Below are positions 4,232-21,550 of a stretch of 29,303 nt of DNA, in pieces. The stretch's first letter is position 1; the number at the start of each line of letters is the position of its first letter. The notes beneath the pieces were generated by a model that was given only the letters and a program-made list of their open reading frames with translations, was not told where the DNA came from and searched no databases. This stretch comes from Halocafeteria seosinensis (lineage: Eukaryota), in NCBI GenBank assembly GCA_001687465.1, contig LVLI01000003.1, positions 62,001 through 91,303 of the forward strand, written 5' to 3'. The position numbers and the translations under genes were made by a program.

Positions 4232-5586
4232 TTAGCTCTTCACGGGGCCGCCCTTGCCTCCAGTGGTCTTCAAGCCAACAAGCGTTTTGAAACTATCATA
4301 GATCCACCACTGAAGACCTGTGAGAGTACCGATCATCAGAATACGAGGGACAAGACCGCTAAGGGCAAGGTTGAAGAAGCCGTGCTCTTTAATGATGGCA
4401 CCAATACCACCACCGGACTTCTGGTTCAACTTCGAGACAATGGTATCAGGTGCTTGAGATACAATGGCACACAAGACACCAGCGGTGTATCCGGAAAGGA
4501 AAGTGACAAGGAGCTGCGTGCTCTTGGTGTAGCTCTCCTTGGGGGCAGTGAAAACGAATGTATAGAATCCTTCGACCACACGCTCGAAGGCAGCGAACTT
4601 CACCATGGTATAAGGAATCTGACGTCCCCATAGAGGTCCAAGACCCTTGAAAAATCCGTTCATTCCTTCGTTTTGCTTGATACGGCTAACAGCGTCCTTA
4701 AGGTTGAGCGGGAATTTCGCATCCTCGGGAGAGGTTTGCATCCGTACTTTCACAGATTCCATTGGGCACAAAGCAACATCAGCAATGAATTCAGCAGATG
4801 CGGAGGCACACAAGAAAATTCCAGTCCGCCACTTGAATGCGGTTTCGGGGTCAAAGAATCCAGAGTACAAGTCCTGCATTTGACCACGTCGTCAAGAATA
4901 TCGGATGCGCAATAACAACCATATTAGAGCACATACCTTGAAGATCTCGTAAAATCCGAACTTGCAGAACCCTTGCATGCTATATCCAATCAAAGTGGGT
5001 GCCCAACCGATGGTGTATCCTCCTTGCTTGCCGAGCGTAGAGAAGCCGCTTATGATTCCCGGGTAGAGTTCGGGGTTGGTCTGTGAATCAAAAGAACAAA
5101 AAGGGGGTTGGTAACTCTCAAGGGCGCACAGTGGGGGAGCCCAGTAGTACAGGGACATTGAGTCTTCCCTACCAAATCGGGCTTTATACAAGAACAAATG
5201 ACCATTCTATGCTCCATGCCGTGTATAGCACACAAGCACCCTTTTCCTCATGACGTATGAGATGTCCCTCATGTCCGCGTGTTTAGCGCCATTCAGCTAA
5301 TTTCGTGGAAGGACGATAAATTGCTTACCTGCATTCTGCATTTGACGATATCCAATGGAGTGATGGCTGTATGCGTGAGACCGCATGAGAGGATTCCTCC
5401 AGTCATGCACTTGGCGTAGTAGCTGGCATCATGCTCTTTATCGTGCCCTAAGAAAGCGGTCATGGGCTTTTCGCTCGTGGTGGTCGTAACATCTTTTTGT
5501 TGTTTCAGCTGAGGGGAGCTCACAGGGGCTGGGAGGAGCGACATGCTCCCTCCAAGAGCGCTTGGATCATACAGATTACGAAACAT
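4232..5586 (-). CDS. SLC25A3: Mitochondrial phosphate carrier (SLC25A3/Pic2/Mir1 family), 3 exons, about 347 aa
   Basis: Exons 5586-5329, 5080-4937 and 4873-4232 are in frame across GT-AG introns. Three carrier signatures ([30 protein letters not shown]) and family motifs [24 protein letters not shown] and [18 protein letters not shown]. Confidence 0.95.
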
Positions 5587-6327
5587 TGTGTCTATCTAAA
5601 AAGATAAGGATTTCGGACTCCTTTACCGTGCGAAGCAAAAGTCTAACGATGTCCCGAGGAAAAGCTAGCCAGAAACGCACTTCTGCTAACCCTTTACAAT
5701 CCGTACGACTCTAACTTCTTGGCCCTGGCAAGGAGATTCCTCCCAGGTGCGGAAAACATGTAGGAAGGAAGCGGAACCGAAGTTCCAACTTCCAGGATTG
5801 TATAAGTTGGTGCCTCCTCCGAACCAGTTTGCCTATAGGACCCTACACATAGAAATGTGAATCGTGCGAGAAGGAAGACAGCAGCAGCTAGCTCTGCCGC
5901 AATCATCGGCACTCAGGCAGGAGATTCCTGTCCAGGTGGCTGAGGCCAGCCCAGGTCACGTTTGAAGGATTCCCAGTCCACCGAGAATTCAGACAAGGAC
6001 GCACCACTTTGAAGGGGATACCTTAATGTAACGGAGGCTCTACTACTTCAGCTGTCGCGGCCGTGAGACATTACCTGGTAGTAGACCGAGATACACCGTG
6101 GCCTACCGACTACGAGAACTACCAAGGGTAGTTACGGACCCTCACGCTCCCGATTGCCCTTCACAATTGCTCAACGCTAGCATCTGGCATGATTGGAAGG
6201 CTAACCGAGAACTTAGAGGAAGCTTGGTGCAGCCTGAACTTTCCCGCCGGAATTCCTGTCGATTCCTAACGATAGATTCCGCATCGGTGGATCCTTTAGC
6301 GCAACATACCATGACGTTAGCTCTGTA

Positions 6328-6359
6328 TACCATAGGATGCAGAAATAAGGGCCGATTCT
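6328..6359 (+). repeat. Left TIR of the pogo-like transposon
   Basis: Reverse complement of 8166-8197 at 31 of 32 positions. The core AAGGGCCGATTCT is repeated subterminally at 6399-6411. Confidence 0.92.
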
Positions 6360-6584
6360 CTCGTAACTTGAAGTTGCAAATTTTCAGATGTCAATTTAAA
6401 GGGCCGATTCTACAAAACGGTCATATTTGGATTATTTGAGGGTGTTTGATGGATTGTAAACCATCAAGATATAAAGAAAATACATTTGCATTGTACTATA
6501 TTTCTCTTACATGGATTATATTTCCATAGGAGTGGAGAAAATGGATGGGACAGTCTCGTGGCTCGACTGCGCGCCAAAAATTGG

Positions 6585-6875
6585 CTAAAAAGCACTAACG
6601 TGGTCCTCCTGGAGAGATGACGCATGCTTCCAGGTGTTTTCAGTGTATGTATAACCTTTCCACTTGACAAGAAGGTGCTGTTCTTCTTTGTCTTTCTGCA
6701 AGAAGCTCTCCACATCAAACTGGCTAGGTGGTAAGTCATGCGCACATGGATCCGAATCCGACTGTTCCTCTTGGTCAATGGCCTCTTGCAGCTGCTTTAC
6801 AAGAAAGGATTTTCGGAACCCTAGCACCGGTAAACCCCTTGCTTTGTACATTAGCTCTAACTCAGAACGGGTCAT
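6585..6875 (-). pseudogene. SAP-like domain plus chromodomain fragment inside the transposon
   Basis: MTRSELELMYKARGLPVLGFRKSFLVKQLQ fits the SAP consensus (LtvaELkelLkarGLpvsGkKaeLverL). FDVESFL...LLVKWKGYTYTENTW fits the chromodomain consensus with F/W/Y cage residues. Confidence 0.75.
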
Positions 6876-6899
6876 GCAAGAGGATCTCCCAGTATGACC

Positions 6900-8105
6900 G
6901 CTTGACCTGGAAGAAGTCGGGCGGCCAAATGCTTCGATTCTTCAATGGCTGCGCAATGCTCCGATGGTCCGCGCTGTTGGTACGTATTATATTCCCAGTC
7001 TTTGTGTAAAATCCATGTTTCAAATGTGGGAAGCAATTTGCCGCAGACTGTTCGATCCCGAAAGTGATGGTACGCGACGAAATTCGCTAAGGGCAGAATT
7101 GCTTTGTTTAGCAAGTTTTCCAGAATGCAATTGCGCCCCATCCGTTCGCTTAGATACAGCTCTCTTGCAGCTCCCCCGAAGCCGGCCTCATCTGCGTCGT
7201 CTTGAGATTGTCTGCAGGATATCAGTTCTTAACTTGTCCGCTACAACACCGAACACGCTCAAATCGCAAGGCTGCAGTTTGCAGGTTATACGGGCCGGAA
7301 TGTAGCTCAACCCAATCAGTGGATACTTAACTGATTGTGGATACTTTCCTTGCGGAATGACTTTCTGGTGTGCACGGGTGGAGCGCCTTTTGGCAATCCG
7401 GGAATAATGGCAGGAGTCTGACCACATGCTCATTCAATTTGGCCACGATTTACTCTTCAGACATCCAGTGGTCGATATTACTCTCATTTATGTATGCATG
7501 AAGTATTCGTATTTCGCCGAATAGCCGTGCCATGCGGCCTTATTGGGACGAAACGGAGATAGTTTGTTTTGGTGGGAACAACAACATGGGTCAACAGCAG
7601 TTCTCCACACGCATTCACCACGGGAGTCATGGTGGTCTGTCTTTTCTCGCTTGACGCAAGAAAGGAAGCAGGTTCAGTTCCCGCATAAATCGTCGTCTTC
7701 TACTTGCACCCGCTGCGGAGTAGAATTCTACATTCTTTCGTCCCTGGTACAAGTAGGTAAGAAGCGGCAATCTACACTCCAGGGTTATTATGGTTACTGA
7801 GGATGAATGTGATAGGTTCTCGTGCGTCAGAGCTGCCTACGACTCCTGGAAGGCGTGTGAGATGTGTGACTAAAGCTCGGCAGTCGAACTTCACAGTGTA
7901 CATTTTTCCGCAACGGGTTCGCGAACGTTCTGGACGTTCGCAACTTCAACCATCCCAAGGGGGAGGCAAAGGGGACACACAAAATGACCCCTGGCCACTT
8001 TTTCAGCCCTCTTGAGACCAAGAAATCGGGCAATATCTTTATAACCAGAAATGCTTTGAAAGCAAAAATTTGACAGAGTACATAAAATATGATTGCCTTC
8101 CTCAT
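6900..8105 (-). pseudogene. Frameshifted pogo/CENP-B-type (DDE_1) transposase
   Basis: Motifs in the expected order but in different frames with stops: PFASPLGWLK (HTH, cf. FxaSxGW), EKRQTTMTPVVNACGELL (about 7650-7590), HWMSEE (about 7470) and YIPARITCKLQPCDLSVFG (cf. lPpntTsklQPlD). Confidence 0.8.
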
Positions 8106-8165
8106 GGTATTGCTCTCTATCCAATTGAAGACCTGAATAAAGGCGGCAATAATAAGGGCACATTT

Positions 8166-8197
8166 AGAATCGGCCCTTATTTCTGCATCCTAGGGTA
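8166..8197 (-). repeat. Right TIR of the pogo-like transposon
   Basis: AGAATCGGCCCTTATTTCTGCATCCTAGGGTA, an inverted copy of 6328-6359. Confidence 0.92.
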
Positions 8198-8608
8198 TAT
8201 AACCAAGAGGCAGAAGCGAAACCAGTTGAATTCTTTTGGAACAAGAATATGAACACCAAACCCAAATTTAAGGTTGGGACAAATGTAAGAATTAGCAGAG
8301 TTAAAGGGAAGTTTGAGAAAGAAGTAAGTCAAAATTGGAGTGAAGAGATTTTTCGAATAAGTGAAGTAAAAAAGACAGATCCACCCACGTATAAAATTCA
8401 GGATATAGAAACAGGTGAAGAAATCGAAGGTATTTTCTATGAACCGGAGCTTCAGGCGACTCGAGTAGATCCACAACAATACTTAGTTGAAAAAGTTATT
8501 AAAACAAGAAAAAGAAAGGGACAACCGAAAGAAGTATTGGTCAAATGGTTGGGATTTCCGGACTCAAGAAATACCTGGATTCCAGCTAGCGAAGTTAAAG
8601 ACATTTAG
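8198..8608 (+). pseudogene. C-terminal fragment of a Polinton/Maverick-type rve integrase (SH3-like region plus chromodomain)
   Basis: PKFKVGTNVRIS...FEKEVSQNWSEEIFRI...PPTYKIQD..GEEIEGIFYEPELQ followed by YLVEKVIK...VLVKWLGFPDSRNTWIP is the typical Polinton integrase tail. The frame is open back to the transposon junction (8198 YNQEAEAKPVEFFWNKN). No DDE core is present. Confidence 0.85.
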
Positions 8609-8630
8609 AAGAATAAAAAAAACACTATGG

Positions 8631-8675
8631 TTCTTTTTGACTCTACTTTTTCTTGGAAAGAAAAAGAGAATATTT
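8631..8675 (+). terminator. Intergenic hairpin repeat B, copy 1
   Basis: TTCTTTTTGACTCTACTTTTTCT-tggaa-AGAAAAAGAGAA downstream of the integrase stop. Near-identical to 11574-11618 apart from the loop. The terminator role is inferred. Confidence 0.6.
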
Positions 8676-8695
8676 CTTAGAATAGTATATAGAAA

Positions 8696-9472
8696 ATGGA
8701 AGATGAAAAAGATAACCTACATATTGGAATAGAACCAGGTGTTTACAAAATGATCATTTCGGTTGAAGAATTGCGAGAAGTCAAATATTTTTTGAATAAA
8801 GGAGCTGACAAAGAATTGGTTATTATTCAAAGTGTATTAAACGGAGACTTAGAAATATTTAGGTATTGTATTGAACAAGGAGCAACAATAAGCTTTATAT
8901 TTCCGTTTTTGTATGCGAAAGCTATAGAAGAGAAACAAAAAGATATTTTAAGGGAACTTTTTGAGTATCATTGTCCAAAGTATAAACAAAAAGATTTTTT
9001 ACTTGATGCACTTCACGGAGCGATTGAAAACTGCTTTAAAGAAGGTGTTAAGTATTTAATTGAAAAAGGGGCTTCTGTTCCAAATATCAGTGGCAGGAAA
9101 ATCACAAATTATATTAAAAAAGAAAGAGATGATTTCTTTGATTATGTTGAAATTTTTAGTTATCTGTTTTCTGCTGGTTTAGAACTAACTAAGCTTAAGA
9201 AAAAGCAAAAATTGATTTTCTTCTCTGGCTTAGTTGATTTAAGTTGGCAGAAGCATAATCACAAAAGATTTTTAGAGAATCGAGGTTTTGAAATTATAAA
9301 CAACTTTTTCTATCAAACATATCCACATTTGAAAAACAGTGACGAAAATTGTATGATTTGTTTTGATAATGAAGTTAATAGGAAAACTTTAAATTGTCAT
9401 CACACACATGTTATATGCATAAATTGCCTAAATCATATGACAGCTTGTCCACTAGATGGGATACTCATATAA
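8696..9472 (+). CDS. Ankyrin-like repeat protein with C-terminal RING finger (putative E3 ligase)
   Basis: Ankyrin-like segments VLNGDLEIFRYCIEQGA and LHGAIENCFKEGVKYLIEKGASV. RING pattern CMIC-x11-CHHTHVICINC-x6-CPLD. Confidence 0.8.
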   Translation: MEDEKDNLHIGIEPGVYKMIISVEELREVKYFLNKGADKELVIIQSVLNGDLEIFRYCIEQGATISFIFPFLYAKAIEEKQKDILRELFEYHCPKYKQKDFLLDALHGAIENCFKEGVKYLIEKGASVPNISGRKITNYIKKERDDFFDYVEIFSYLFSAGLELTKLKKKQKLIFFSGLVDLSWQKHNHKRFLENRGFEIINNFFYQTYPHLKNSDENCMICFDNEVNRKTLNCHHTHVICINCLNHMTACPLDGILI

Positions 9473-9477
9473 CATAC

Positions 9478-9550
9478 TTTTTAATCTCGACGAACGTTAG
9501 TTCTAGAGATAAGAAAATTTCTTAAACCAAAGGTTTGGCGAAAGTTTTAC
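9478..9550 (+). repeat. Multi-hairpin repeat A, copy 1
   Basis: TTTTAATCTCGACGAACGTTAGTTCTAGAGATAAGAAAATTTCTTAAACCAAAGGTTTGGCGAAAGTTTTAC, just after the ankyrin-RING stop. Other copies at 10272-10331 (+) and 11486-11556 (-). Confidence 0.9.
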
Positions 9551-9562
9551 CTAATTGTTATA

Positions 9563-10276
9563 ATGAAATTAGGTAAAAAATTAGGTTCAGCTTTTAAATT
9601 GGGCGTGAATTTTAGCGACCCCATTGGAAACCAAAGAATAGGAAGAAACATAAGTGAACTATTTAGCTTTGATAGAGGAAACGTTGACGAATTAAATACA
9701 AATGAAAAGCTAAGTGTGTTAATGAGCTCACAAGCTTATAAAAAAGTTCAAGACCGTGAAAATGTAAGTGACTTTAGATATATAGAGCAACTAAGCAACC
9801 AATTTACAGCAGTCTATTTTAAAGCTGAAACAAATACTTTATTTATTGCTTTCAAAGGTACAAGCACAATTGGCGACGTTTTTACAGATATTGAGTTTGC
9901 AAGTGGTGCAGAAAATATAAGTGTTAGTTTTAATAATGCTCTGGCAACTTTTGACGCTGTTGTTCAAAATATTCGACCTTCAAAAGTTTATCTATGTGGG
10001 CATTCTCTTGGTGGTGGATTTAGTTTATTTGTAAACATGCGTAGGGAAGATATTAGCCACACTTATGCAATAAATCCAGCTTTTAACCTTACAAATATAG
10101 CACAATCGCTTAAAAATTCACAAATCAAAAGCGTAACAATTTTAAAAACCCCAGATGATGCAGTGAGTTTTTTAAGTTTATTTTCTCGTTTCAATGTTAA
10201 AACTATCCCAGTACCTGAGCCAAATATTATTGGAAATCATCAATTAGGAACTTTTATGGATTTGGCGAATATTTAA
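9563..10276 (+). CDS. Class 3 lipase / alpha-beta hydrolase
   Basis: IAFKGTS..DVFTD oxyanion/lid motif, nucleophile elbow GHSLGG, candidate Asp (PDDAVS) and His (GNHQL). Confidence 0.9.
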   Translation: MKLGKKLGSAFKLGVNFSDPIGNQRIGRNISELFSFDRGNVDELNTNEKLSVLMSSQAYKKVQDRENVSDFRYIEQLSNQFTAVYFKAETNTLFIAFKGTSTIGDVFTDIEFASGAENISVSFNNALATFDAVVQNIRPSKVYLCGHSLGGGFSLFVNMRREDISHTYAINPAFNLTNIAQSLKNSQIKSVTILKTPDDAVSFLSLFSRFNVKTIPVPEPNIIGNHQLGTFMDLANI

Positions 10277-10331
10277 TCTCGTCGAACTTTAGTTCTAGAG
10301 ATAAGAAAATTTCGTTTTAGCGAAAGTTTTA
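10272..10331 (+). repeat. Multi-hairpin repeat A, copy 2 (third hairpin partly deleted)
   Basis: TTTAATCTCGTCGAACTTTAGTTCTAGAGATAAGAAAATTTC...GCGAAAGTTTTA. It supplies the lipase TAA stop and lies between convergent genes. Confidence 0.9.
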
Positions 10332-10366
10332 AGTAGTTTGGTTTTGAAATTACTTAAAATGATAAA

Positions 10367-11203
10367 TTAAAGACCTTTAAACAATTTTTTAAGTTGATTA
10401 TTTTGGGGTTCTGGTTGAGGATTTGCAGAAGCTGGAGTTGTTCCAATATTTGAAGTTGGTCTTCGTCTTGAATTTCGACTTGGCTGTTTCATTTCAGAGT
10501 AACCAAAACGACTAAATGGGTCACTTGGATTTGTGCTTAATGGTCTTGGATTTTCTGGAATTGTTTGAGAATATGGATTATATGGCTCATTAGTTGGTCT
10601 TTGTGGTTGTGGAATGGGATATGGTTGCGGTTGTGGTTGAGTATAATCATATAAATTTCCTTGTGGTTCTGGGTAATATTGTGGTGTTGCTGTTGGTTGC
10701 AATTGTGGTTCATATCTTGCTCCATATAACTGATTGGGATCAACGTAATTTATTGAACTTTGGTTTTGATTTGGATTTTGATAATACGGAGAATTTGCGT
10801 AACATGCTGGGTGTGTCATTTGTGGGTTATATGTTTGATTATTTTGCTGTTGTTGTTTCTGTTGTCTTCTTTCTTCTGCTTTTTTTCGTCTTCCTTCTTT
10901 CATTCTTTCAATTGCTCTTTCTCTTGCTGGTGTCATTTTCCTTTTATATTGTTTCCCATTCTCTTTTGGTTTCTCTTCTTCTGCTGGTTTTTGTGGTTGT
11001 TGCTGTGGTTGATTTTGTTGAATCATTAACCTTTGTAATTGTTGAGGAGTTAAACTTATTTTATTAGAAGTTTGGCTTGATGTTTCTGGTTGTGATACTT
11101 GTTTGGTTTCCTCATTTTCCTCACTACGTCCTTCTTGCTGTGCTAACATTCGGTTTATAGTCTCTACGTCTAATTCTACGTTTTCATCGTTTTCGTTACT
11201 CAT
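10367..11203 (-). CDS. Viral Q/P/N-rich low-complexity protein with a basic coiled segment
   Basis: 278-aa ORF with TATATA upstream. Acidic N-terminus, basic helix KRKMTPARERAIERMKEGRRKKAEERR, and a P/Q/Y-rich disordered tail. Confidence 0.75.
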   Translation of the reverse strand: MSNENDENVELDVETINRMLAQQEGRSEENEETKQVSQPETSSQTSNKISLTPQQLQRLMIQQNQPQQQPQKPAEEEKPKENGKQYKRKMTPARERAIERMKEGRRKKAEERRQQKQQQQNNQTYNPQMTHPACYANSPYYQNPNQNQSSINYVDPNQLYGARYEPQLQPTATPQYYPEPQGNLYDYTQPQPQPYPIPQPQRPTNEPYNPYSQTIPENPRPLSTNPSDPFSRFGYSEMKQPSRNSRRRPTSNIGTTPASANPQPEPQNNQLKKLFKGL

Positions 11204-11274
11204 CGTTATACTATATATGTAAATTTTAATTCTATAACGTATTACGTAAAATGTAATTTTTTGTTATAAATATA

Positions 11275-11466
11275 ATGAATAGTGAACAAGAGACCCAAGA
11301 AAAAGAGAAACCTTCACCAATCACTTACGAAGAGTTACTTCAAAAATATCCACCTGAATATTTGGACCAAATTGAGGGTTTGCAACCAGTTCCAGAAGTT
11401 ACAAATGAGGAGATTAATAAAATGCTTAAAAATTACGAAACTCAAAAGAAACTGGGTAATATATAA
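11275..11466 (+). CDS. Small acidic viral hypothetical protein (63 aa)
   Basis: ATG preceded by TGTTATAAATATA. The stop is followed directly by a hairpin (11468-11488). Confidence 0.6.
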   Translation: MNSEQETQEKEKPSPITYEELLQKYPPEYLDQIEGLQPVPEVTNEEINKMLKNYETQKKLGNI

Positions 11467-11485
11467 ATACCTTTTTCCCAAAAAA

Positions 11486-11556
11486 GTAAAACTTTCGCTA
11501 AACCNAAGGTTTAAGAAATTTTCTTATCTCTAGAACAAAGTTCGTCGAGATTAAAA
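11486..11556 (-). repeat. Multi-hairpin repeat A, copy 3 (inverted)
   Basis: The reverse complement matches copy 1 except in two loops and one stem base. Confidence 0.9.
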
Positions 11557-11573
11557 TCAAAAAACTATAACGC

Positions 11574-11618
11574 TTCTTTTTGACTCTACTTTTTCTACGC
11601 AAGAAAAAGAGAAAATTT
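11574..11618 (+). repeat. Intergenic hairpin repeat B, copy 2
   Basis: TTCTTTTTGACTCTACTTTTTCT-acgca-AGAAAAAGAGAA, just upstream of the MCP start region. Confidence 0.85.
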
Positions 11619-11644
11619 AATTTATATATAATATATATATAATA

Positions 11645-13084
11645 ATGTCAAGTTTAGATCAACAGCCACTATCAAATGTTGGACAAGCTCAACCACAAGG
11701 AGAATCTCAAGGCTTACAACCTGAACCACCTCAAAGAAGTGGATTAAATAGGAGAGATGTGCACTTTGATCCCAAATTGCAAAGCTCAAATTTTAAAACA
11801 CTTGAAAACTTAAGTTCTCGGCAGTCTGTTCGCATAAATCCAGAAGCCGGATTGGGTGACTATAATCCTGGTTCAACTGTAGAGTGGACAATTCAAAACA
11901 CTTCAGCTCTCTCGGATACTCAAAACAGTCATTTAGAATTTGATTTTGTTAATTCTAACCCTGGTGACAATATTCCATCGGATGGTTTAGATGTTTTACT
12001 TGATAATTTAGAACTTCAAATTGGTGACCAAACAATTGAAAAAGTTTCAGATGGAGCAAGATATTACCAAATGTTATTGAGATCAACCGCACACCAAAGC
12101 TATTACGATAATGAAGCAAATGCACTCATGAAATCTTGGAAATATTTGAGTTATCATAAAAAATATAATGTTGTTCATCCTGCTAATAGTTATGATGATA
12201 GCAGTGATGATAATAACACTAACATCATGACCGCTTATTATTCAGCTAATGGAACTATAAAATGTATTATACATTTGGATAACTTAAGTTTTTTCCGTCA
12301 AGCAAGGTTTAAACCAATGTTCACAGCTATTAAACTCAGTTGGAAATTGCCGGAAGCTCAAAAAGTAATGGAAAGAAGACGTGATAATAATGCCCAAAAT
12401 GCTCCTTCATATACCGTTAGAAATCCAGTTTATATAAGTTCCCAAGTTTATCCAGATGCTTCATTATTGGAAAGTCTTCATTCTCAAATTTTTGAAAATC
12501 AACAAGGGTTAGCAATGGCACTACCCGGAGTTGTGGAAACTTATCGAAGAAGTTTGTCGCAATCTACACAAAATAATATTACTATTCCGGCATCTTTCTC
12601 AGATATTGAAAGTATTATATGTTTACCTGTTAGAAGAGCAACTTCAAGTACAACAGATGATATAAATGTAGGTACGTTTAGAACAGGTAATAATGTCACA
12701 CTTAAAAATTTTGGTGTTAATATTCAAACCGAAGATTTAGCAATGAAAGGAGGTTATAGAAACATGGAAGAAGCTTATAGAGGTTTAAGACAAACTTTTA
12801 ATTTCTTGGGAGATGTTGGCGGAAATGGTATGATTGATTGGGATACATTCAACGCAACACTTGGAAATGGTGGCTTTGCGCCTTTGGCAGTCAATACAAG
12901 TTTGTTAATGCATGCACCTCCCGAAGTTTTATCAAATGGACTGAGTACGCAAGATATGGGTAGTCAAATTAATATAAATCTTGAAACTGAAAATAATATT
13001 GGTGGTAATATGGATTTGCTTGTTTTTGTTTTGCATAAACGTATTTTGATGATGCAACAAGGTATTATTAAGATTGGTATTTAA
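11645..13084 (+). CDS. Major capsid protein, double jelly-roll (Polinton/PLV type)
   Basis: 479 aa, beta-rich. The N-terminal VRINPE..DYNPGSTVEWTIQ..LSDTQNSHLEFDF and LLDNLELQIGDQTIEKV, and the C-terminal LLVFVLHKRILMM, follow the Polinton/PLV MCP pattern. Clustered with ATPase and mCP. Confidence 0.85.
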   Translation: MSSLDQQPLSNVGQAQPQGESQGLQPEPPQRSGLNRRDVHFDPKLQSSNFKTLENLSSRQSVRINPEAGLGDYNPGSTVEWTIQNTSALSDTQNSHLEFDFVNSNPGDNIPSDGLDVLLDNLELQIGDQTIEKVSDGARYYQMLLRSTAHQSYYDNEANALMKSWKYLSYHKKYNVVHPANSYDDSSDDNNTNIMTAYYSANGTIKCIIHLDNLSFFRQARFKPMFTAIKLSWKLPEAQKVMERRRDNNAQNAPSYTVRNPVYISSQVYPDASLLESLHSQIFENQQGLAMALPGVVETYRRSLSQSTQNNITIPASFSDIESIICLPVRRATSSTTDDINVGTFRTGNNVTLKNFGVNIQTEDLAMKGGYRNMEEAYRGLRQTFNFLGDVGGNGMIDWDTFNATLGNGGFAPLAVNTSLLMHAPPEVLSNGLSTQDMGSQININLETENNIGGNMDLLVFVLHKRILMMQQGIIKIGI

Positions 13085-13123
13085 AATGTTAAGAAAATTT
13101 TGAACTATGATATATAGATCAAA

Positions 13124-14194
13124 ATGACACATTTCTTTAAACATAATCGTGGAACATTTGACATAAAAGGTTTTCATAAAAGTGACAATTTTGAGACTGT
13201 TGATGAGTCTCTTGCCACAGTTAATCAATCAAAAAGAGGTGGAAGAACTATTTTAGAACCTTTTTATAAAGAACGTCAAAACGGTTATGAATTTTGTGGG
13301 CAAGAAGGCTTACAACCAAGAAAAGAATTTATTCAACCACTAGAACAATCTAATTTTGTAACTCCTCCTTTAGAGTATCAAACACGATTGAGAGCTGGTA
13401 GAAATATACCAAAATGGTATGGACATTTTCAAGGTCCTGGAATTCCTGAGCCTGAAGTTCCTATCGGCAATAAATACTTTAAAAATTATCAGCAAGACGT
13501 TCCGCTTAGTGATTTGGCTCGCGATTTCTTTCGTACTGGCATAGGTGCTTTAAATAATACTCCTCCTATGCGAGATAGACAAAGTTTAATAAACTTTTTG
13601 CAACAATCTGGTTTATTTAGAGAAGAAGACGAAAATAAAAGTCTGGCTTCACTTGCTCAAAAAATACAAGAACAGAGCGGACGAGCTGGAGCACCTGAAA
13701 ACCCTTTTAATAATGATCCTGTTTTTAGTCAAATTTTGCAACGTATTCGCAGTAATCCACAAGTTACCAATTTAACACCTCAACAACTTCAACATCGTCA
13801 GGCAGTTGCCCAACAAAATCAAGCAAATCAAGAATTTCAACAAGGAGCACAACAGCAACAAACTCAACAACAAACTCAGCAACCGGCGAGAGGTTTTAAT
13901 TTTGATTCTGATCCTTCTAGCTCATCATTTCCAGCACCTAATTCTGGTGCACAGCCTCAAGAACAAGTAGCTCCAGAATCTAATCAAAGTATAGAACGAG
14001 CACCACGATTTGGGAGAACTGAAAACGGACGCCAAGAAGTTATTACCACTCTTAATGGTCGTGAAGTTAGAGGCTGGGTCGGTGATAGAGGTGGTATATA
14101 CTCCAATGCGACAAGTCGAAATACAATACCACCAGTTTCAGCACATAGGCGAGCTATTAAAAACGCTTTTGAACGATTAAGACAAAATGGTTAA
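13124..14194 (+). CDS. Viral hypothetical protein with a Q-rich linker and basic C-terminal domain
   Basis: 356-aa intact ORF between MCP and ATPase. The C-terminal NGREVRGWVGDRGGIY resembles GxRGGxY-type basic adaptor motifs. Confidence 0.75.
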   Translation: MTHFFKHNRGTFDIKGFHKSDNFETVDESLATVNQSKRGGRTILEPFYKERQNGYEFCGQEGLQPRKEFIQPLEQSNFVTPPLEYQTRLRAGRNIPKWYGHFQGPGIPEPEVPIGNKYFKNYQQDVPLSDLARDFFRTGIGALNNTPPMRDRQSLINFLQQSGLFREEDENKSLASLAQKIQEQSGRAGAPENPFNNDPVFSQILQRIRSNPQVTNLTPQQLQHRQAVAQQNQANQEFQQGAQQQQTQQQTQQPARGFNFDSDPSSSSFPAPNSGAQPQEQVAPESNQSIERAPRFGRTENGRQEVITTLNGREVRGWVGDRGGIYSNATSRNTIPPVSAHRRAIKNAFERLRQNG

Positions 14195-14215
14195 AAATTT
14201 ATCTACATTATATAA

Positions 14216-15199
14216 ATGCCGAATTGGATTTCGATCTTATCGAATAAAAAAAAGAAAGAAAATAGTTTTCGTTATGTTGTTGTTGGTGGTACTCGATCCG
14301 GAAAATCCACACTTTTACATAATTTAATCTTTAAATTACATAAATCAGAAATTAAACGCGTAGTTTTATTTGGTGGTAAATCTGCTTCAAATGAGGAAAT
14401 GAAAGATATCTTTAAAAAGGAAAAACCTCCTTTTGATTTGGAAATACATAAAAATTATAATGATGAAAAAGTTGGAGAAATTTTTAAACAAATTGAAACA
14501 GACAAAACAAAAAGAAGTGGAAAACAAACAGTTTTTATATTCGAAGATTTAATGGCAGAAAACGCCAGCAACAAAACTAAAAATAATAATATCGATCGTG
14601 TAATTAAGAACGGAGGTGAGTTAAATATTTCTTCGATTATAACAACCCAAAAATATACTGACGTTAAAACATCAACTAGAAGCGGAAATATTAGCAAACT
14701 TTTTTTATTTGAGATCCCTGATAATGAAATTACTCTCGTTCATCGAGAACAAAACTTAAAAATTGGGAAAGATGATTTTAAAAAAATAGCTAGCGAAGCA
14801 ACCGAAACAAAATACGAGTTCATTATAATAGATCAAAAAGCTGAAATCAATGAAAAACTGAAAGATAGCGACTTTAACGTTATCAAACCCGAAGAAAAAG
14901 AAGATAAAAAAGAAGATGAAGCCGAAGTTTTAAAAGGAAAATCAGCAAAAAAGGCAAAACCCACAAAAGTTAATTTGGTTAAATTTCTAAAACCTGGTAA
15001 AGATGACAATGAAGCAAAGTTTTACGCTATCTTTCAAGTAGGAAAGGAAATTAAAAAAGTCCCAGTGGGTGACAATGTGAAAGGTAATGGAAATGTGTCA
15101 GATCCTACAAACCCAGAAGTTTTAGTTAAAGAACTGCTAAACAGAAATAAACCTTTTAAAGAAAATTTGAAACAGTTTCGAGAAAAATTTAATGTCTAA
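14216..15199 (+). CDS. A32-like (FtsK-HerA) genome packaging ATPase
   Basis: Walker A GGTRSGKST, Walker B VFIFED, ISSIITTQKY (conserved Q), downstream R..N (TRSGN) and YEFIIID. Confidence 0.88.
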   Translation: MPNWISILSNKKKKENSFRYVVVGGTRSGKSTLLHNLIFKLHKSEIKRVVLFGGKSASNEEMKDIFKKEKPPFDLEIHKNYNDEKVGEIFKQIETDKTKRSGKQTVFIFEDLMAENASNKTKNNNIDRVIKNGGELNISSIITTQKYTDVKTSTRSGNISKLFLFEIPDNEITLVHREQNLKIGKDDFKKIASEATETKYEFIIIDQKAEINEKLKDSDFNVIKPEEKEDKKEDEAEVLKGKSAKKAKPTKVNLVKFLKPGKDDNEAKFYAIFQVGKEIKKVPVGDNVKGNGNVSDPTNPEVLVKELLNRNKPFKENLKQFREKFNV

Positions 15200-15200
15200 A

Positions 15201-15226
15201 TTTTACTTTTTACCAAAAAAGTAAAA
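15201..15226. terminator. Perfect hairpin between the convergent ATPase and mCP genes
   Basis: TTTTACTTTTT-acca-AAAAAGTAAAA, an 11-bp stem filling most of the 33-bp gap between two stop codons. Confidence 0.65.
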
Positions 15227-15232
15227 AACTAT

Positions 15233-16048
15233 TTAACTTCTTGGTATGAAGAAGTACTCAAATTCGAGCACCACATTACCCCCATTTAACTCCATTTGAT
15301 TATACTCCTCATCAATTATAGCGAAATCAATAACTTCTAAATCATCATTCACTATACTAGAAAATGTTTGTTCGTCGCTATATTCGCGAACTAATTCATC
15401 ACCAAAAGAAACATCATTAAAAATCGAAGCTATAATAGGCTGGTTTCTACTCTTAACTAATTTATAATTTTGTGTGTCTCCAAGTGTGTTTGATATTATA
15501 TGATACACAGCAGTATTTAATAATTTGGGTAATCCAGCAACATCAAATGTTTCACCTCCTGAAATTTTATGTTGGGTGCTGTCTCTTATAATCCCAATTT
15601 TATGATGTGCCGAGTTTTCTAAAGTTACCGTTTGAAATATAGGATTTAAAAAGGTGTTAATAATATAAAAAGGCTCACTATCAGCATTTGTAAAACTAAA
15701 CCTTTGTTTAGATTCATTAAAAACAGCAGTTATATTATGTCCCCTATTAGCAAAAAAATTATTCATAAAGTCTTCTAGTTCTGTCCCATCTTGATAAACT
15801 CGATCAGTATCAAATTTTAATTCTGTTAAATTTGGACCACTATCCAATTCCCTAACATAATATAAAACATTGTTGTATTCTGAAAATGTATAGGCAGTAT
15901 TTGGCAGAGCTACTTTTTTAAGTCCTATTTTTACATTTGATTTTAAAGAACTAATAGCCTCCTTCAGATAAACACTGAAATCCGAATTTGAGTCATTTGT
16001 TTGTCTATCTATTCTTGAGTTTATTGTTAATCTAAATTTATTTGACAT
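15233..16048 (-). CDS. Minor capsid (penton) protein, single jelly-roll
   Basis: N-terminal LTINSRIDR...SDFSVYL...IGLKKVALPNTAY and C-terminal IDFAIIDEEYNQMELNGGNVVLEFE match the PLV/NCLDV penton consensus. 271 aa. Confidence 0.88.
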   Translation of the reverse strand: MSNKFRLTINSRIDRQTNDSNSDFSVYLKEAISSLKSNVKIGLKKVALPNTAYTFSEYNNVLYYVRELDSGPNLTELKFDTDRVYQDGTELEDFMNNFFANRGHNITAVFNESKQRFSFTNADSEPFYIINTFLNPIFQTVTLENSAHHKIGIIRDSTQHKISGGETFDVAGLPKLLNTAVYHIISNTLGDTQNYKLVKSRNQPIIASIFNDVSFGDELVREYSDEQTFSSIVNDDLEVIDFAIIDEEYNQMELNGGNVVLEFEYFFIPRS

Positions 16049-16059
16049 CTATATATTTA

Positions 16060-16716
16060 TTATAAATTTTCTGGTATATAGTTCCATCCTATTTTTTCAC
16101 ATATTAATTTCCACATATAATTAGCATTCTGCAAACCCTTCATATTTACATAACAATGTTTTACATTAAGGTACTTTATTACCCATTTTTCTTCTATTAA
16201 TTCTAAAAGTTTCCTTAAAATAAAATTATAATTTGGTAAGTTGTACCTTTCGTTCGGTCTGGCGTATGTCCAATTTATTTCTATTCTCTTGAACATTCTC
16301 AATAATTTATCTTCTATATGTTTACTTATCGGTTCTGGTCTATATCCTGTTAATTTATAATAAATAACTGAAATATGTGGATAATACATTGTTTTTCGTT
16401 TACTTTTTAAGTATTTATAAATTGTTTCATGCTTATAATTTAAATTTCTCTCTTGATGATATTTTTCAATTTCATTCATTAATCTCCTTGTNATTTGTCT
16501 GGTTTCAATTCCTTGCATTGATAAAATTATTCTATGGAAATTATGGGTTTGAATGCTGTCCACCTTTCTCATATACAATTTGGGTTGTGCCTCTATATAT
16601 TGATCTTCTATAAACGGTCTTTCTTCGCAAATTATTCCACATTTTGAATTGGTGCAACTATATGAACTTTCATCATTCAAAGCTAAACTTTTCTTTTTAC
16701 ATTCTGGACATTGCAT
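16060..16716 (-). CDS. VLTF3: VLTF3-like late transcription factor (poxvirus A2L family)
   Basis: N-terminal Zn ribbon (CPEC...CTNSKCG). Motifs HNFHRIILSMQG, YYPHISVIYYKLTG..P, RMFKRIE, RYNLPNYNFILRKL and WKLICEKIGWNYIP occur in VLTF3 order. One N at 16492. Confidence 0.9.
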   Translation of the reverse strand: MQCPECKKKSLALNDESSYSCTNSKCGIICEERPFIEDQYIEAQPKLYMRKVDSIQTHNFHRIILSMQGIETRQXTRRLMNEIEKYHQERNLNYKHETIYKYLKSKRKTMYYPHISVIYYKLTGYRPEPISKHIEDKLLRMFKRIEINWTYARPNERYNLPNYNFILRKLLELIEEKWVIKYLNVKHCYVNMKGLQNANYMWKLICEKIGWNYIPENL

Positions 16717-16759
16717 TATATATAGTTTTAAGAAAAAGATAATTTATATATAGTATATA

Positions 16760-16870
16760 ATGAAAGTTGGCAAAAATCCGCAAGACATCCAAAAAGCTGG
16801 TGAAAAAGCTAAAAGAATGCTTCGTTTAGGTGAATCCGCTCTAGAAGCTTTTCAAAGACTGAAATCTTAA
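16760..16870 (+). CDS. Small basic peptide (36 aa)
   Basis: MKVGKNPQDIQKAGEKAKRMLRLGESALEAFQRLKS, with TATATA immediately before the ATG. Below the ORF-track cutoff. Confidence 0.45.
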   Translation: MKVGKNPQDIQKAGEKAKRMLRLGESALEAFQRLKS

Positions 16871-16894
16871 TATGGAACTGGTTAACGTTCTATA

Positions 16895-17047
16895 TTAATC
16901 TTGTTCTTTATGCTCTTGTTCTTGTTCGCTATTTCCTATATGCATTCGACAATCACTATTAAACATATTATCCTTTAGCAACTTAGATAAAAAACCAAAT
17001 ACTAAACCACCTATAGCACTTAATGTAGGTACTAAAGCATCAACCAT
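16895..17047 (-). CDS. Small putative membrane protein (50 aa)
   Basis: MVDALVPTLSAIGGLVFGFLSKLLKDNMFNSDCRMHIGNSEQEQEHKEQD. N-terminal hydrophobic helix, acidic tail, AT-rich TATA-like upstream. Confidence 0.5.
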   Translation of the reverse strand: MVDALVPTLSAIGGLVFGFLSKLLKDNMFNSDCRMHIGNSEQEQEHKEQD

Positions 17048-17136
17048 TTCTATAATATATTACAACAATTAGTTCATTTATATTAAACTTCTTGACACTA
17101 ACTAATAAAATTTAATGCACTAATATATAAAAGAAT

Positions 17137-19877
17137 ATGTCGTACATATCAACAACCAAATCAAACAATGTTAGTGTAGGAGAAGGCTTAAAAAAAGATG
17201 GGGCGAAAATTACTTTTGATAATGAATTGTTGTTCACCAAAACAGAAGTTCTACAAAAAATTGACGAACACGCTACCCAAGACGCTGATTTAAATAATTA
17301 TTATACCAAAACCGAGGTTGACAACGAATTCACCAACTTTAATAATAATATCAATACACTTTTAGATAATGAGTATTACGACCAATCACATATTGATACA
17401 AATTTTTATACGAGTGCTCAAGTGGATACTAAATTAAACGATGAGTATTACGACAAATCACACATTGACGCAAATCATCTTACAACATCAAAAACAGTAG
17501 ATACTATTAACGCTAACTTAGAGGATTATTATGATAAGGCCGAAATAGACACAAATTTTTATAATAAAATAGAAGTTGATGATAAATTAGACCTAGCAAA
17601 ATTTCAGTTCACTAGTTATGAAATAGAGGATATTCGAGATTTTTGGGCTTTTAATGATACATTCACAGAAGACTACGAAATCAATAGTGAGGTTACTGGT
17701 GGAAATCTCCTTAAAATAAAGAGTGGTTCACTCAATGTTGGAACAATAGCAAACCAGTTAAGAGCTTATTATTCATTTGATGATGTTAATAATCCTTTTG
17801 AAGATAGTATAGGTTCTTTTAACGGTACTAATAACGGTGGAGTTATTACAAGCAATGCAAAGATAGATAAAGGTGTTTCATTTAGTAATGGTGATACATT
17901 TATTAACGTTGGTTCAGTTCTAGGTTATACTACGGAAGATTTTACAGTTGCGTGTTGGTTTTATCCTACAACTGATAGTGATAATCAAATGTTATATAAT
18001 GTTGGTAGCTCATCACAAGATGCTCAAAGTCATCTAATATACAATTTTTCACCAAATAAAATATCTTTTAGAGATGTTAATAATAATAATCAAATTGATT
18101 CAGTTACTGATATTTCATTAAATCAGTGGTATTATATTACAGTAACGAGAGTAGGAACTAGCCTTAATATATATATTAATGGTCAATTAGATAATACTGG
18201 TACGGTTACTAGTGGTACATTATCAGACCCTTCAAACAATAGTACAATCTCTAGAGGAGCTACTGGTATACTTAATGATGGTCGTATTGATGAATTTGGT
18301 ATTTTTGTTTAGAGAGCTATCAGATAGTGAAATTGATTTTTTATATAATAGCGGAAACGGTGGAAATATAAGTGAAATTGTTGGTGATTTTTTACAAAGT
18401 ACTGAAGGACTACGGGTTAATGCTTTTCATCAAGTTGAGGACGTTTATTTAGAAGATGTGGATAAAACCCAAAACACTATTCAATAATATTTCCTATTTA
18501 ATGTGGATTGGTGACAGTGCTGAAACAGCTATTTCAAATAAGCAATTGTTTATCAGTTATGATAAAACAGATGATTCTATCCGAATAACCGGAAATAATG
18601 CAACAACAGCTACTAAAGAATTAACTTTAGATACTTGGGCTCACTTAGCCTTAGTAGTTGACAAAGCAAACGATAATGTTAAACTCTATGTTGATTCTGT
18701 TGAAACATTACAAATTAATGGTTTAGAAGCTTCAATCGGAACAACTCTAAGGTTAGGTGGTGGTTATTTAGATGGGAGCGGAAATCCAGTTGGAACATCT
18801 GAAACGGTCTTTGATAAAGTTTTATTCTTCACTCGTCCTTTGAAAGAGTTTGATATAAAGAATTTGTATCAAGTAAGAGGTCAATTTAATTTAAACCAAA
18901 TACCAACCGCTCATTTTTATTATAAAAATGATGTTGATTCTAATTTTCTTAAGACAGATGGAACTAATAATATGACTAATAATTTGGACCTATCAAATAA
19001 TAAAATTGTTAACTTAAATCCCCCAACAAATCCAAAAGACGCAACTAATTTAAGTTATCTTGAACAAAATTATTATAATAAAAATACAGCCGATTTTTTA
19101 TATCTTTTTAGGGATGGAGGCAATTCAATGGAGGGTGATTTAACTTTTGCTAATGGTGCTAGTATAACTTTAAATGATACTGATATGGATGCGGTAAACA
19201 ATAAAATAATTAATGTTAATGACCCAACTTTTGATAGGGATGTGGTTAATTTACAATTTGCGAATAGTAATTATTTAAGTCTTGACGGTTCTAATTCTAT
19301 GACATCAAATATAGATGCAGGTAATAATAAACTTATTAATGTAAATGATCCCACTAGTAATAAGGATGCTGTTAATTTACAATATTTTAATTCAAATCAA
19401 ACTGGATCTTTACCCAAGGTTTATAAATTTACACAATCGAGCACGCCAACAATTAGCAATGGAAGTACTGAAACATTACAAAAAATTAGTGCCGGTTTAC
19501 CATTGAATTATTATTATTGTCATGTAGAACTAATAATATCAGTTGATGAAAATGAAACTGGAGTAACTGAGGAATTTACTGCAACATACAGTATAACTGA
19601 TGATGTAGGAACAAATAACGATCCCATTCAATCTTTAGCCCATTGGAATCCGGGTCTTGGTGGTTCAACTGGTGCTTATTCTCAAACGTTTTCTGGTGTA
19701 ACAAATGACCCACAATATAAAAACTTTTATTTTACTTTTGATATAATAACAGATGAAACTGAAAATTTAACATTTACATTTGATGTAACAAATAACTCTG
19801 GTAGTAGTACTGATGTGAATTTTATGCAACATAAAGTTAGAGCACACGCAATAAAAACACCTTCACAATTTCCTTAA
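17137..19877 (+). pseudogene. Fibre/receptor-binding-like protein with two LamG (ConA-like) domains, split by two +1 frameshifts (912 aa if repaired)
   Basis: YYTKTEVD-type repeats, LamG domain 1 (AYYSFD...FTVACWFYP...WYYITVTR...IYINGQL...GRIDEFGIF), LamG domain 2 (MWIKP...WAHLALV...LYVD) and three D.xNNKIxNxNxPT..xDAxNLxY shaft repeats. Removing one base near 18310 and one near 18455 fuses the three ORFs. Confidence 0.8.
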
Positions 19878-19880
19878 TTT

Positions 19881-19907
19881 ATATAATACTAAAAACTAGT
19901 ATTATAT
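19881..19907 (+). terminator. Perfect hairpin after the fibre gene stop
   Basis: ATATAATACTA-aaaac-TAGTATTATAT, an 11-bp stem starting 4 nt after the stop. Confidence 0.6.
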
Positions 19908-20124
19908 TTATTCTTTCAACGTGACAACTTTTGAAATTTCCCATTGAGAAGTGTGTAAGTAATTTCGATGGAAAATTACAAACTTATAGAAGTGTAAAAG
20001 ACGGGTTCAGCCACTGTTAATTAAACAGAAGTTATACACTATAGTTTTTTAAAAAATTTCCCATTGTAAAACCTGTAATGTATTTTTACCCGATGAAGTA
20101 CACTTATGATTATTTACATGTCGC

Positions 20125-20356
20125 TTTACGGTTGCACCTTGACAACGTTCTGGTTTTTAGCGTTGACAATCGTTTACCTCTCTCACTGCTATTTGTCAAC
20201 TCTATCTTCTGTTTTTGTATGGTTACACTTTCTTCTTGACAACACTTTACTTTCTTGCATTGACACCCTTGCAATCTCCCACAATGCTGTTTGTCAACTT
20301 TAACTTCTGTACATGACAGCTTACGGTTACTTCTTGACAACGCTTTGTTTTTATGC
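20125..20356. repeat. Degenerate ~97-bp tandem repeat (about 2.3 units) near the right end of the virus
   Basis: TGACA at 20140/20237/20335 and 20164/20261, TGTCA at 20194/20292 (offsets 97-98). Shared blocks TGCTRTTTGTCAACTYTAWCTTCTGT and TTACGGTT...CTTGACAACG. Confidence 0.75.
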
Positions 20357-21550
20357 TAATTACCCATGCAATGTTTCAATGGTGTTTGGTGGGCTTGGGC
20401 TTAGCTACAAAGCATTTCGTTAAGGTGTGCCATCCATAGACATTGTACTCTACTTGCCCTATCAAATAATTACCATCTACATGATACGTTGAGGTGTGAA
20501 ACCTTTCGGAATGTGACGCATCAATATTATTGACTGGTTGGTCATGCAAGTACAGTACCGCCGGGGGTATTTACGCTTTGGTTCCTTCGCTTCGTTATTG
20601 CCTGAGACTTGCTAACCCACACACACACTGCTACACAACTTTACCGGTACTTCCTCTACCAAGGAAAAACGCTACCAACACTTCCACCGTGTATCGACTG
20701 CCGCTGGCACTGCTGTCATCTGGAAGCAGAGCAACGACACCGCATCTATCTGGGGTTCTCCTACCGCTCACTCGGAAGGGAAAACGGAGGAATATGACCG
20801 GTGCCTTACTTCAAGCCGCCCGCTTGTGGGTGTAGAGTGTGGTGCCTCTGTATCTACGCGGTTTAATACTGTCCGGTACAGTTTAGTCATTACATTTTAA
20901 GCTGACAGTTTGATCGCATACAATAACAAAACAAGTTTTTTCTCATCAGACCTTTACGCTTCCGAACTTCACTTCAAGTCGGGAAGCGTCTCCCGCTGGG
21001 GATCGTCGTCCATACGCATTTTATTGCTATTGTAGCATTATATGTACTGTATAATGGTGGCAAACCATTCATATACTATCTGCATGTAGTGTAATACACT
21101 CGTCCTCGATACAGTGTCTAGGGACTTGATCAACAACTACTGTACACTGTAGACAATACGAGCGGTTGATTTAAGTCCCTTTATTTCTGTCGAAGACGCC
21201 ATTGCTTGGGGATGCCTCCTCTTTGGTGCCGCATTGATGAGCATCCCCACGTTTACTTCCTTGAGCTGGCAGCTAATCGTTAAAGCACAAAATTAAATGA
21301 CTGTTTTTACGAAGTTCTGTTTTTGTTTCTAACTCTGACGTCGAAACTTTCTAAGTCAGAGCTTAAGTCGTTGACTCCCCAGGAAGTCGTATCGTTTTAA
21401 ACAAAGTTGTCAATGATGGCAGCCCCAGTGTATACGTATTGTTAGCTAAATAATGATGGCCAAACTGTCTACAAGCTGACCACCAGATCCATGAGAAATT
21501 GGGCGCCGATATAGATTATTACATTATCGAAAGCATTGAAAGAACAGGTC

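Follow-up and report, generated by a model that had tools for sequence, protein, structure and literature searches.

A short VLTF3 gene in a truncated Polinton-like provirus of Halocafeteria seosinensis and its possible role in recruiting a giant-virus RNA polymerase

An intact gene of VLTF3, a hallmark of giant viruses, was found in a left-truncated, AT-rich Polinton-like provirus (~8200-20454) within the window, a 29,303-nucleotide stretch of the Halocafeteria seosinensis genome. We put the chances at about even that the product of this gene, in a virophage-like Polinton-like virus (PLV), recruits the RNA polymerase of a co-infecting giant virus to late-type promoters. VLTF3 has been treated as a marker of Nucleocytoviricota (accessible part of PMC11253617), to which the element adds a further counter-example that lies in a eukaryotic genome and has a probable integrase remnant. 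The gene, a set of promoters from 12 genes and a confident structural model make it testable here what VLTF3 does for a small virus that lacks a polymerase.

Boundaries and gene content of the provirus

The GC content falls from ~0.48 to ~0.30 between roughly 8200 and 20000, with flanks at 0.45-0.51, and the features of the element and its surroundings are collected in Table 1. Characteristics by which PLVs are recognized are present: a double jelly-roll major capsid protein (MCP), a penton and an A32 ATPase in a small genome, as well as integration into a eukaryotic genome, seen as a low-GC element within higher-GC flanks that carry a split mitochondrial carrier gene. A sequence-only reading of this DNA had proposed a small integrating virus, and the capsid module in its eukaryotic setting bears this out for an element that is incomplete and cut at a transposon.

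Table 1. Features of the provirus and its surroundings, in window coordinates
Feature	Position	Strand	Evidence or remark
Mitochondrial carrier gene, three pieces, probably phosphate carrier	4232-5586	-	
Decayed pogo-like DNA transposon	6326-8199	-	34-bp inverted ends (97%); DDE_1 remnants E 0.01; Chromo E 4e-8
3′ remnant of probable RVE integrase, chromodomain at end	8200-8608	+	Pfam Chromo E 3.1e-11; frame starts at transposon end
Ankyrin-repeat protein, C-terminal RING finger	8696-9472	+	Pfam Ank_2 E 4.7e-9, zf-C3HC4_3 E 7.7e-5
Hairpin straddling lipase start	9545-9578		
Alpha/beta-hydrolase lipase, 237 aa, stand-alone	9563-10276	+	Pfam Mbeg1-like E 1.2e-7, Lipase_3 E 1e-4
Q/P-rich ORF, 278 aa	10367-11203	-	No family match
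Late promoter motif before Q/P-rich ORF	11207-11231	-	1 mismatch
63-aa ORF	11275-11466	+	A/T-rich late-type motif upstream
Double jelly-roll MCP, 479 aa, very divergent	11645-13084	+	Model; Atlas 0.97-0.98
Q-rich ORF, 356 aa	13124-14194	+	No significant family
Late promoter motif before ATPase	14192-14216	+	1 mismatch
A32-like packaging ATPase, 327 aa	14216-15199	+	Pfam Pox_A32 E 2.3e-11
Perfect 11-bp hairpin	15201-15226	.	Lies where ATPase and penton genes converge, between their stops
Probable penton (minor capsid protein), 271 aa	15233-16048	-	Atlas feature score 0.98, including Sputnik V18/19 minor-capsid cluster
Late promoter motif before penton	16048-16072	-	1 mismatch; overlaps VLTF3 end
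VLTF3 gene, short form, 218 aa	16060-16716	-	Zinc ribbon starts at residue 3; long N-terminal extension lacking
36-aa ORF divergent from VLTF3	16760-16870	+	43-bp A/T-rich gap shared with VLTF3
12-bp hairpin, one G-U pair	16867-16898	.	Between stops of two small convergent ORFs
50-aa ORF, hydrophobic stretch	16895-17047	-	
Fibre-like gene, laminin-G/concanavalin domains, tail-fibre-like repeats	17137-19877	+	Laminin_G_3 E 7e-18, 2e-7; two frameshifts
Perfect 11-bp hairpin	19881-19907	.	Directly after fibre stop
Repeated terminal segment, probable right end of element	20138-20454	.	AG 5′ on minus strand

The frame of the integrase remnant begins exactly where the pogo-like transposon ends (8199/8200), and host-like DNA lies on the far side of the transposon, from which we conclude that the left part of the provirus, with any replication genes, has been lost from this locus. 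The remnant is probably the C-terminus of a Polinton integrase, going by a Polinton-integrase motif. The transposon retains a chromodomain ORF at 6585-6875. No left end was found within the window with which to look for terminal inverted repeats or a target-site duplication. On the right, two sequencing runs from the same organism (X2 and X3) contain 20138-20454 with different DNA behind 20454, and a contig of a further run (X1) carries 30 letters on the element side of this junction, one below the bridging rule; the right end reads AG on the minus strand, as Polinton ends do. The terminal segment displays imperfect direct repeats with a period of ~98 bp (20110-20388).

Among the ORFs scanned in the remaining 12 kb of the incomplete element, neither pPolB nor a cysteine protease was present; the mriyavirus genes VLTF2, RuvC and HUH endonuclease were likewise missing there, and Mriya48 was not identified. 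The probable integrase remnant argues against mriyavirus membership. The low-confidence model of the MCP (pLDDT 43.8) matches double jelly-roll capsids to E 7e-9, with virophage, MELD and giant-virus capsids hit alike, and its sequence gave no match to solved (virophage) capsids. Word-based protein searches returned one homologue for the MCP, at 43% identity, and none for the ATPase core, while the probable penton had no Pfam match. The ankyrin-RING gene, of a type known mainly from giant viruses, possibly encodes a ubiquitin ligase of the element.

No sister element was retrieved from viral_contigs (queries VLTF3, ATPase, the MCP pair, P0113, P0001 and the integrase remnant) or from metagenome_contigs (queries the MCP pair and the terminal 25 bases). 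As judged from these searches, the lineage is distant from everything in the collections covered. A GC-rich viral contig (L001:2533-4553), on which a VLTF3 piece is convergent with an A32-like ATPase, was considered and not taken as kin of the element. Neither an Rfam family nor a useful NCBIfam family was found. With its left part lost and its fibre gene frameshifted, the copy in the window is probably dead as a virus. On the host side, an intronless ORF of 771 aa (26544-28859, minus strand) gives a weak C-terminal helix-hairpin-helix match (E 0.009) and is reminiscent of Crinkler-type NTPase/nuclease proteins.

The VLTF3 gene and its predicted fold

The VLTF3 protein begins MQCPEC and is matched over residues 57-213 by Pfam PF04947 (Pox_VLTF3) with E 1.7e-15 (57.6 bits vs a cut-off of 25), covering profile positions 11-168 of 168. 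Sub-threshold zinc-ribbon matches fall on residues 1-34, where the zinc cysteines C3, C6, C21 and C26 are all present, each of them shared by 96-99% of the 124 other homologues compared; only 28 of 42 family-conserved positions are retained. In the Y-x-x-x-N-H motif, the Y and H found in 98% and 94% of the same 124 homologues are substituted in the element and in three short relatives. The gene contains one N, at 16492; it occupies the last position of an ATN codon, which cannot be read as a stop. Its own stop codon lies 11 bp from the ATG of the probable penton gene (16048, same strand). Its GC content is 0.268 and its GC3 0.228, the latter lying within the range of 10 other element ORFs (0.15-0.30 vs 0.41-0.55 in four flanking ORFs). 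The sequence-only reading, which had described a full-length VLTF3 with a zinc ribbon, placed immediately upstream of a minor-capsid gene on the same strand and sharing the composition of the element, is confirmed in each of these respects. Activation of late transcription by the protein is putative.

A structural model built from 129 sequences reached a mean pLDDT of 90.1. Searching BFVD with this model retrieved 33 entries with E ≤ 0.001, most of them annotated as VLTF3 (best TM 0.71, E to 1e-11). VLTF3 models of pandoraviruses, mimiviruses, marseilleviruses, ASFV and iridoviruses were matched, and those of poxviruses less strongly. No solved VLTF3 structure was found by profile or Foldseek searches, the latter giving no PDB match at E ≤ 0.001, and among solved sequences the VLTF3 profile matched 1pft, the zinc ribbon of TFIIB, best (E 0.005). 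Residues 52-214, which form the helical part, could be aligned with the first of the cyclin repeats of human TFIIB (1c9b_A; Z 6.5, rmsd 3.5, 91 residues, about 10% identity), and a structure search of 48,161 chains returned cyclin-box proteins in its top 14 rows (TFIIB, Brf2, ORC6 and cyclins; Z 5.5-6.9), all of these values lying below 8, in a range that the tool calls common for helical proteins. A helical insert, residues 74-127, aligns separately with small helical domains.

On the strength of this model, the element VLTF3 resembles a cut-down TFIIB, consisting of a zinc ribbon, a flexible linker, one cyclin-like repeat and a small helical insert, a resemblance that we offer as a lead. The N-terminal C4 zinc ribbon, the linker and a cyclin-like repeat would be common to both proteins, whereas TFIIB has two repeats and the element protein one, to which it adds the insert at about residues 74-127. 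The same layout may concern the whole VLTF3 family, again as a lead from the model, and, if true, would explain a core giant-virus gene. The early and intermediate stages of vaccinia use TBP/TFIIB-like pairs (accessible part of PMC12917281), and the same part of that paper contained no statement on a TFIIB or cyclin fold of VLTF3; nor did a literature search, with subscription journals largely outside its reach, find such a reading in print.

Transcription signals and the role of VLTF3

Upstream motifs were counted for those 12 element genes that possess a start of their own, which leaves aside the integrase remnant and the second frame of the fibre gene. TATA occurs within 20 nt before the ATG in all 12, as compared with 71 of 325 other ATGs, and TATATA in nine vs seven of 325; under dinucleotide shuffling the mean for TATATA was 3.8, and nine was reached in 0 of 2000 trials. 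The late promoter motif of Megamimivirinae, matched as printed in the methods of PMC11464507, precedes four of the 12 genes at no more than one mismatch (shuffle mean 0.8, P 0.003; the count includes the A of the ATG) and nine, VLTF3 among them, at no more than two (shuffle mean 3.1, 0/1000); with the window of the paper itself (100 nt before the ATG, one mismatch) the count is two of 12 (P 0.08). Over both strands of the whole window, matches with at most one mismatch occur at four places only: before the MCP, the ATPase, the penton and the Q/P-rich ORF. In 10 of the 12 genes, the distance from the end of the motif to the ATG is 0-8 nt. Two occurrences of the mimivirus early motif AAAATTGA were seen in the element, each within a gene. 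A TATA initiator marks the late genes of ASFV too (accessible part of PMC7458399), and the late motif is A/T-rich and loose, so that the motif does not name a helper. These signals point to a polymerase of giant-virus type without naming one, and no candidate helper virus came to light.

Gene ends carry signals of their own. Four distinct hairpins of 11-12 bp were found in the element, three of them at gene ends, and none in 17 kb of flank plus transposon; the search gave five real hits vs 0-2 in 10 shuffles. The mimivirus hairpin rule involves a 13 bp stem, and the stems of the element are shorter. No such hairpin stands behind VLTF3, whose end overlaps the penton motif. Folding with a z of -2 or lower was seen at six of 14 gene ends and in five of 59 coding controls. 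Sputnik and mavirus use late promoters of their helpers, and Sputnik also uses hairpin 3′ signals of mimivirus (accessible part of PMC6723459); late motifs and hairpins, as found here, are the same signs that linked these virophages to their helpers.

Two kinds of repeated intergenic segment were noted as well. A multi-hairpin segment of 70-100 bp is present in three copies, one of them inverted (9479-9578, 10272-10359 and 11486-11556; 76-92% alike), each directly behind a stop codon and between genes, and is possibly a mobile terminator module. A segment of ~90 bp, laid out as a hairpin followed by an A/T-rich motif, occurs in two copies 79% alike, one before the ankyrin gene (8610-8697) and one in the gap before the MCP.

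From the observed gene, its neighbours, variant copies, motifs and 3′ hairpins, together with the predicted fold, we infer helper dependence and recruitment of the helper polymerase. A giant virus would infect the host, and intact sister copies of the element would awaken in its factory. The late machinery of the helper would first transcribe the VLTF3 gene of the element, the product of which would then compete with or replace the VLTF3 of the helper, and the polymerase would be drawn to the MCP, penton and ATPase genes, which would thereby be favoured. That Tetraselmis PLVs carrying VLTF3 are woken by a giant virus counts for recruitment from a helper, and that Tetraselmis striata virus N1 (TsV-N1), which also carries VLTF3, assembles in the nucleus counts against it. 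The sequence-only reading had suggested redirection of a polymerase to the promoters of the element, a suggestion that gains indirect support from the late-type motifs and the TFIIB-like predicted layout and is otherwise carried forward as a proposal.

An autonomous nuclear virus, in which VLTF3 would act as a TFIIB-like adaptor for the host RNA polymerase II at TATA-like promoters, is the foremost alternative, possible but somewhat doubtful. It would suit the likeness of the predicted fold to the TFIIB of the host, and the lost Y-x-x-x-N-H motif could reflect a change of partner. The position of the promoter motif next to the ATG in most genes, however, resembles that of an initiator in viruses, whereas the TATA box of polymerase II stands farther off, about 25-30 nt before the start site, and the hairpins at gene ends also speak against such a virus. 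In the accessible parts of the literature, TsV-N1 with its PF04947 protein assembles in the nucleus (PMC4517135) and a phycodnavirus without a polymerase of its own retains VLTF3 (PMC12085832), both in keeping with a nuclear life, whereas viruses closely related to TsV-N1 rely on a giant virus.

The short form of the protein raises a different question. The zinc ribbon starts at residue 3, as compared with a homologue median of 176, and among 131 homologues with a detectable ribbon it lies after residue 100 in 117 and within the first 10 residues in four. A protein without the long N-terminal extension and the near-invariant Y-x-x-x-N-H motif might be a dominant-negative decoy acting on the helper polymerase or its late-factor partners, which would block late genes of the giant virus and protect the host population; PLVs that inhibit giant viruses are already in print, in sources accessible in part. 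Such a decoy, an idea also raised in the sequence-only reading, appears improbable, because the capsid genes of the element itself bear the late-type motif, and their expression would depend on functioning late transcription. The VLTF3 of poxviruses, moreover, is equally short (213-224 aa in the structure-search rows), so shortness does not amount to loss of function.

A scan of 1.84 billion representatives yielded 1113 VLTF3 homologues with E ≤ 0.001, among which the highest full-length identity was 34%, while word-based protein searches gave no match. In a quick tree (141 rows, 10 of 150 hits being omitted for length), the element protein groups with three of the four short forms with an SH-aLRT of 91, and in a careful tree of 39 rows, for which 38 of the 150 hits were sampled, these sequences again group together outside the long homologues with support of 98/94. 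The loss of Y and H common to the element protein and these three relatives backs their grouping. Branches are long, including that of the element protein, and the rows carry no taxonomy, the long forms being assigned to giant viruses by the lengths seen in named models. The three short relatives sit on metagenomic contigs of 3-5 kb.

On these data a recent capture from one giant-virus family, which would mark a donor or helper, is very unlikely, even with all named structural relatives being Nucleocytoviricota proteins: the best identity is low for so large a scan, the protein branches with short forms rather than long ones, the named viral matches of the structure search spread over many families, with identities of 9-31% and no clear front-runner, and GC3 fits the element. 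The donor family cannot be named from these comparisons, and the test of nesting within one giant-virus family, envisaged in the earlier reading, gave no donor from either the trees or the structural matches. The GC3 of the gene points instead to long residence, and VLTF3 looks, from its sequence, like an old resident of the lineage rather than a fresh capture.

Variation among copies bears on whether the gene is maintained. Run X1, possibly the source of the window itself, supplied 320 contigs over 14300-21500, the only region compared, of which 92, 68, 97 and 63 are at 99% identity or higher, 95-99%, 90-95% and below 90%, respectively; contigs in all these classes indicate a family of copies. 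Eight differences fall in VLTF3 among the 40 listed (of 448). Five of the eight are silent, one of them stop-to-stop, vs 19% expected from the run's own spectrum (P 0.009), and the three replacements (D to E, R to K and A to P) leave the zinc ligands untouched. The pattern fits purifying selection in a small sample whose variants may be copies or alleles, so the selection asked about by the sequence-only reading is favoured to that extent. Runs X2 and X3 had no contig cover over 14300-17191, where contigs cannot show absence. The most variable gene among copies is the fibre-like gene, with many contigs below 95% and loose ends; pieces of it also occur in X2 and X3, and shuffling may carry it from element to element. 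A functionless VLTF3 decaying with its provirus, as the truncation, the frameshifted fibre gene and the long VLTF3 branch might suggest, is scarcely credible for a frame open over 218 codons with four zinc cysteines retained, a confident model and mostly silent listed differences that include the change from stop to stop.

Taking the preferred helper-polymerase reading further, we suggest, tentatively and as an unlikely reading in its full form, that the element represents an undescribed integrating virophage-like lineage whose long-kept minimal VLTF3, a one-repeat TFIIB, is a sigma-factor-like switch taking over giant-virus RNA polymerase. If true, the hallmark VLTF3 of giant viruses would be the TFIIB of late transcription, and the short clade would be a parasite-adapted branch no longer needing the conserved motif of the family.

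Comparison with known systems

VLTF3 is not known to belong to the virophage core, and the MCP sequence of the element matched none of the solved capsids of virophages. The likeness to Sputnik and mavirus lies in the helper-type late motifs before genes, in the gene-end hairpins (Sputnik) and in the integrated state (mavirus) (accessible parts of PMC6723459 and PMC11464507). Mriyaviruses share with the element small genomes with VLTF3, an MCP and an A32 ATPase; they differ in having genomes of 35-45 kb, VLTF2, RuvC and HUH, of which none was found in the remaining 12 kb, as well as giant-virus-like capsids (accessible part of PMC11253617), and, according to 10.64898/2026.06.19.733378, they have no integrases. 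According to the same part of that paper, VLTF3 homologues were not detectable outside Nucleocytoviricota.

Several reports nevertheless place the gene in small viruses, and the novelty implied by the sequence-only reading does not hold: VLTF3 is already in print for PLVs and polintoviruses, from TsV-N1, Tetraselmis, corals and Zephyrvirus. As far as the accessible parts of these papers go, stony-coral polintoviruses carry VLTF3, said there to have been reported earlier with a citation of Krupovic and Koonin 2016 (PMC11131425), and figure legends show it for Phaeocystis elements and MELD viruses. The main text of Yutin 2015 (PMC4642659), in its accessible part, does not mention VLTF, though PMC9356565 cites it for the gene, and PMC12945077 mentions VLTF3, in the part accessible, only for a giant virus. 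The coral polintoviruses are endogenous integrating elements with VLTF3, as here, and their gene has been explained by exchange with giant viruses (PMC11131425); they have animal hosts, and the copy in the window has no pPolB or protease gene left.

Zephyrvirus and Zoravirus have genomes of PLV size (accessible part of 10.64898/2026.06.19.733378). VLTF3 is present in about 30% of the members of the Zephyrvirus clusters VC123/VC126, and RVE integrases are common in Zora; no endogenous Zephyr member was found in that study. By description, the Zephyrvirus lipase is contained in an ORF of up to 7.5 kb, whereas that of the element stands alone, and a further difference is that the element showed no identifiable Mriya48 or HUH.

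A likeness is also seen to TsV-N1 and the Tetraselmis PLVs, which, in the accessible parts of the papers, are small double jelly-roll viruses with an ATPase, both capsid proteins, a lipase and VLTF3, as in the element. Gene 18 of TsV-N1 was annotated as PF04947 in 2015 (PMC4517135), and VLTF3 is shared by integrated Tetraselmis PLVs (PMC9356565, 10.1101/2025.10.09.676808), whose genome-map legend shows the gene and some of which are woken by a giant virus (10.1101/2025.10.09.676808); like the element, they are integrated in a eukaryote genome. Compared by description only, the element differs in its probable RVE-chromodomain integrase remnant, its ankyrin-RING gene and the lack of replication genes in the window. 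The presence of VLTF3 in PLVs has therefore already been reported, and the element is a divergent further case.
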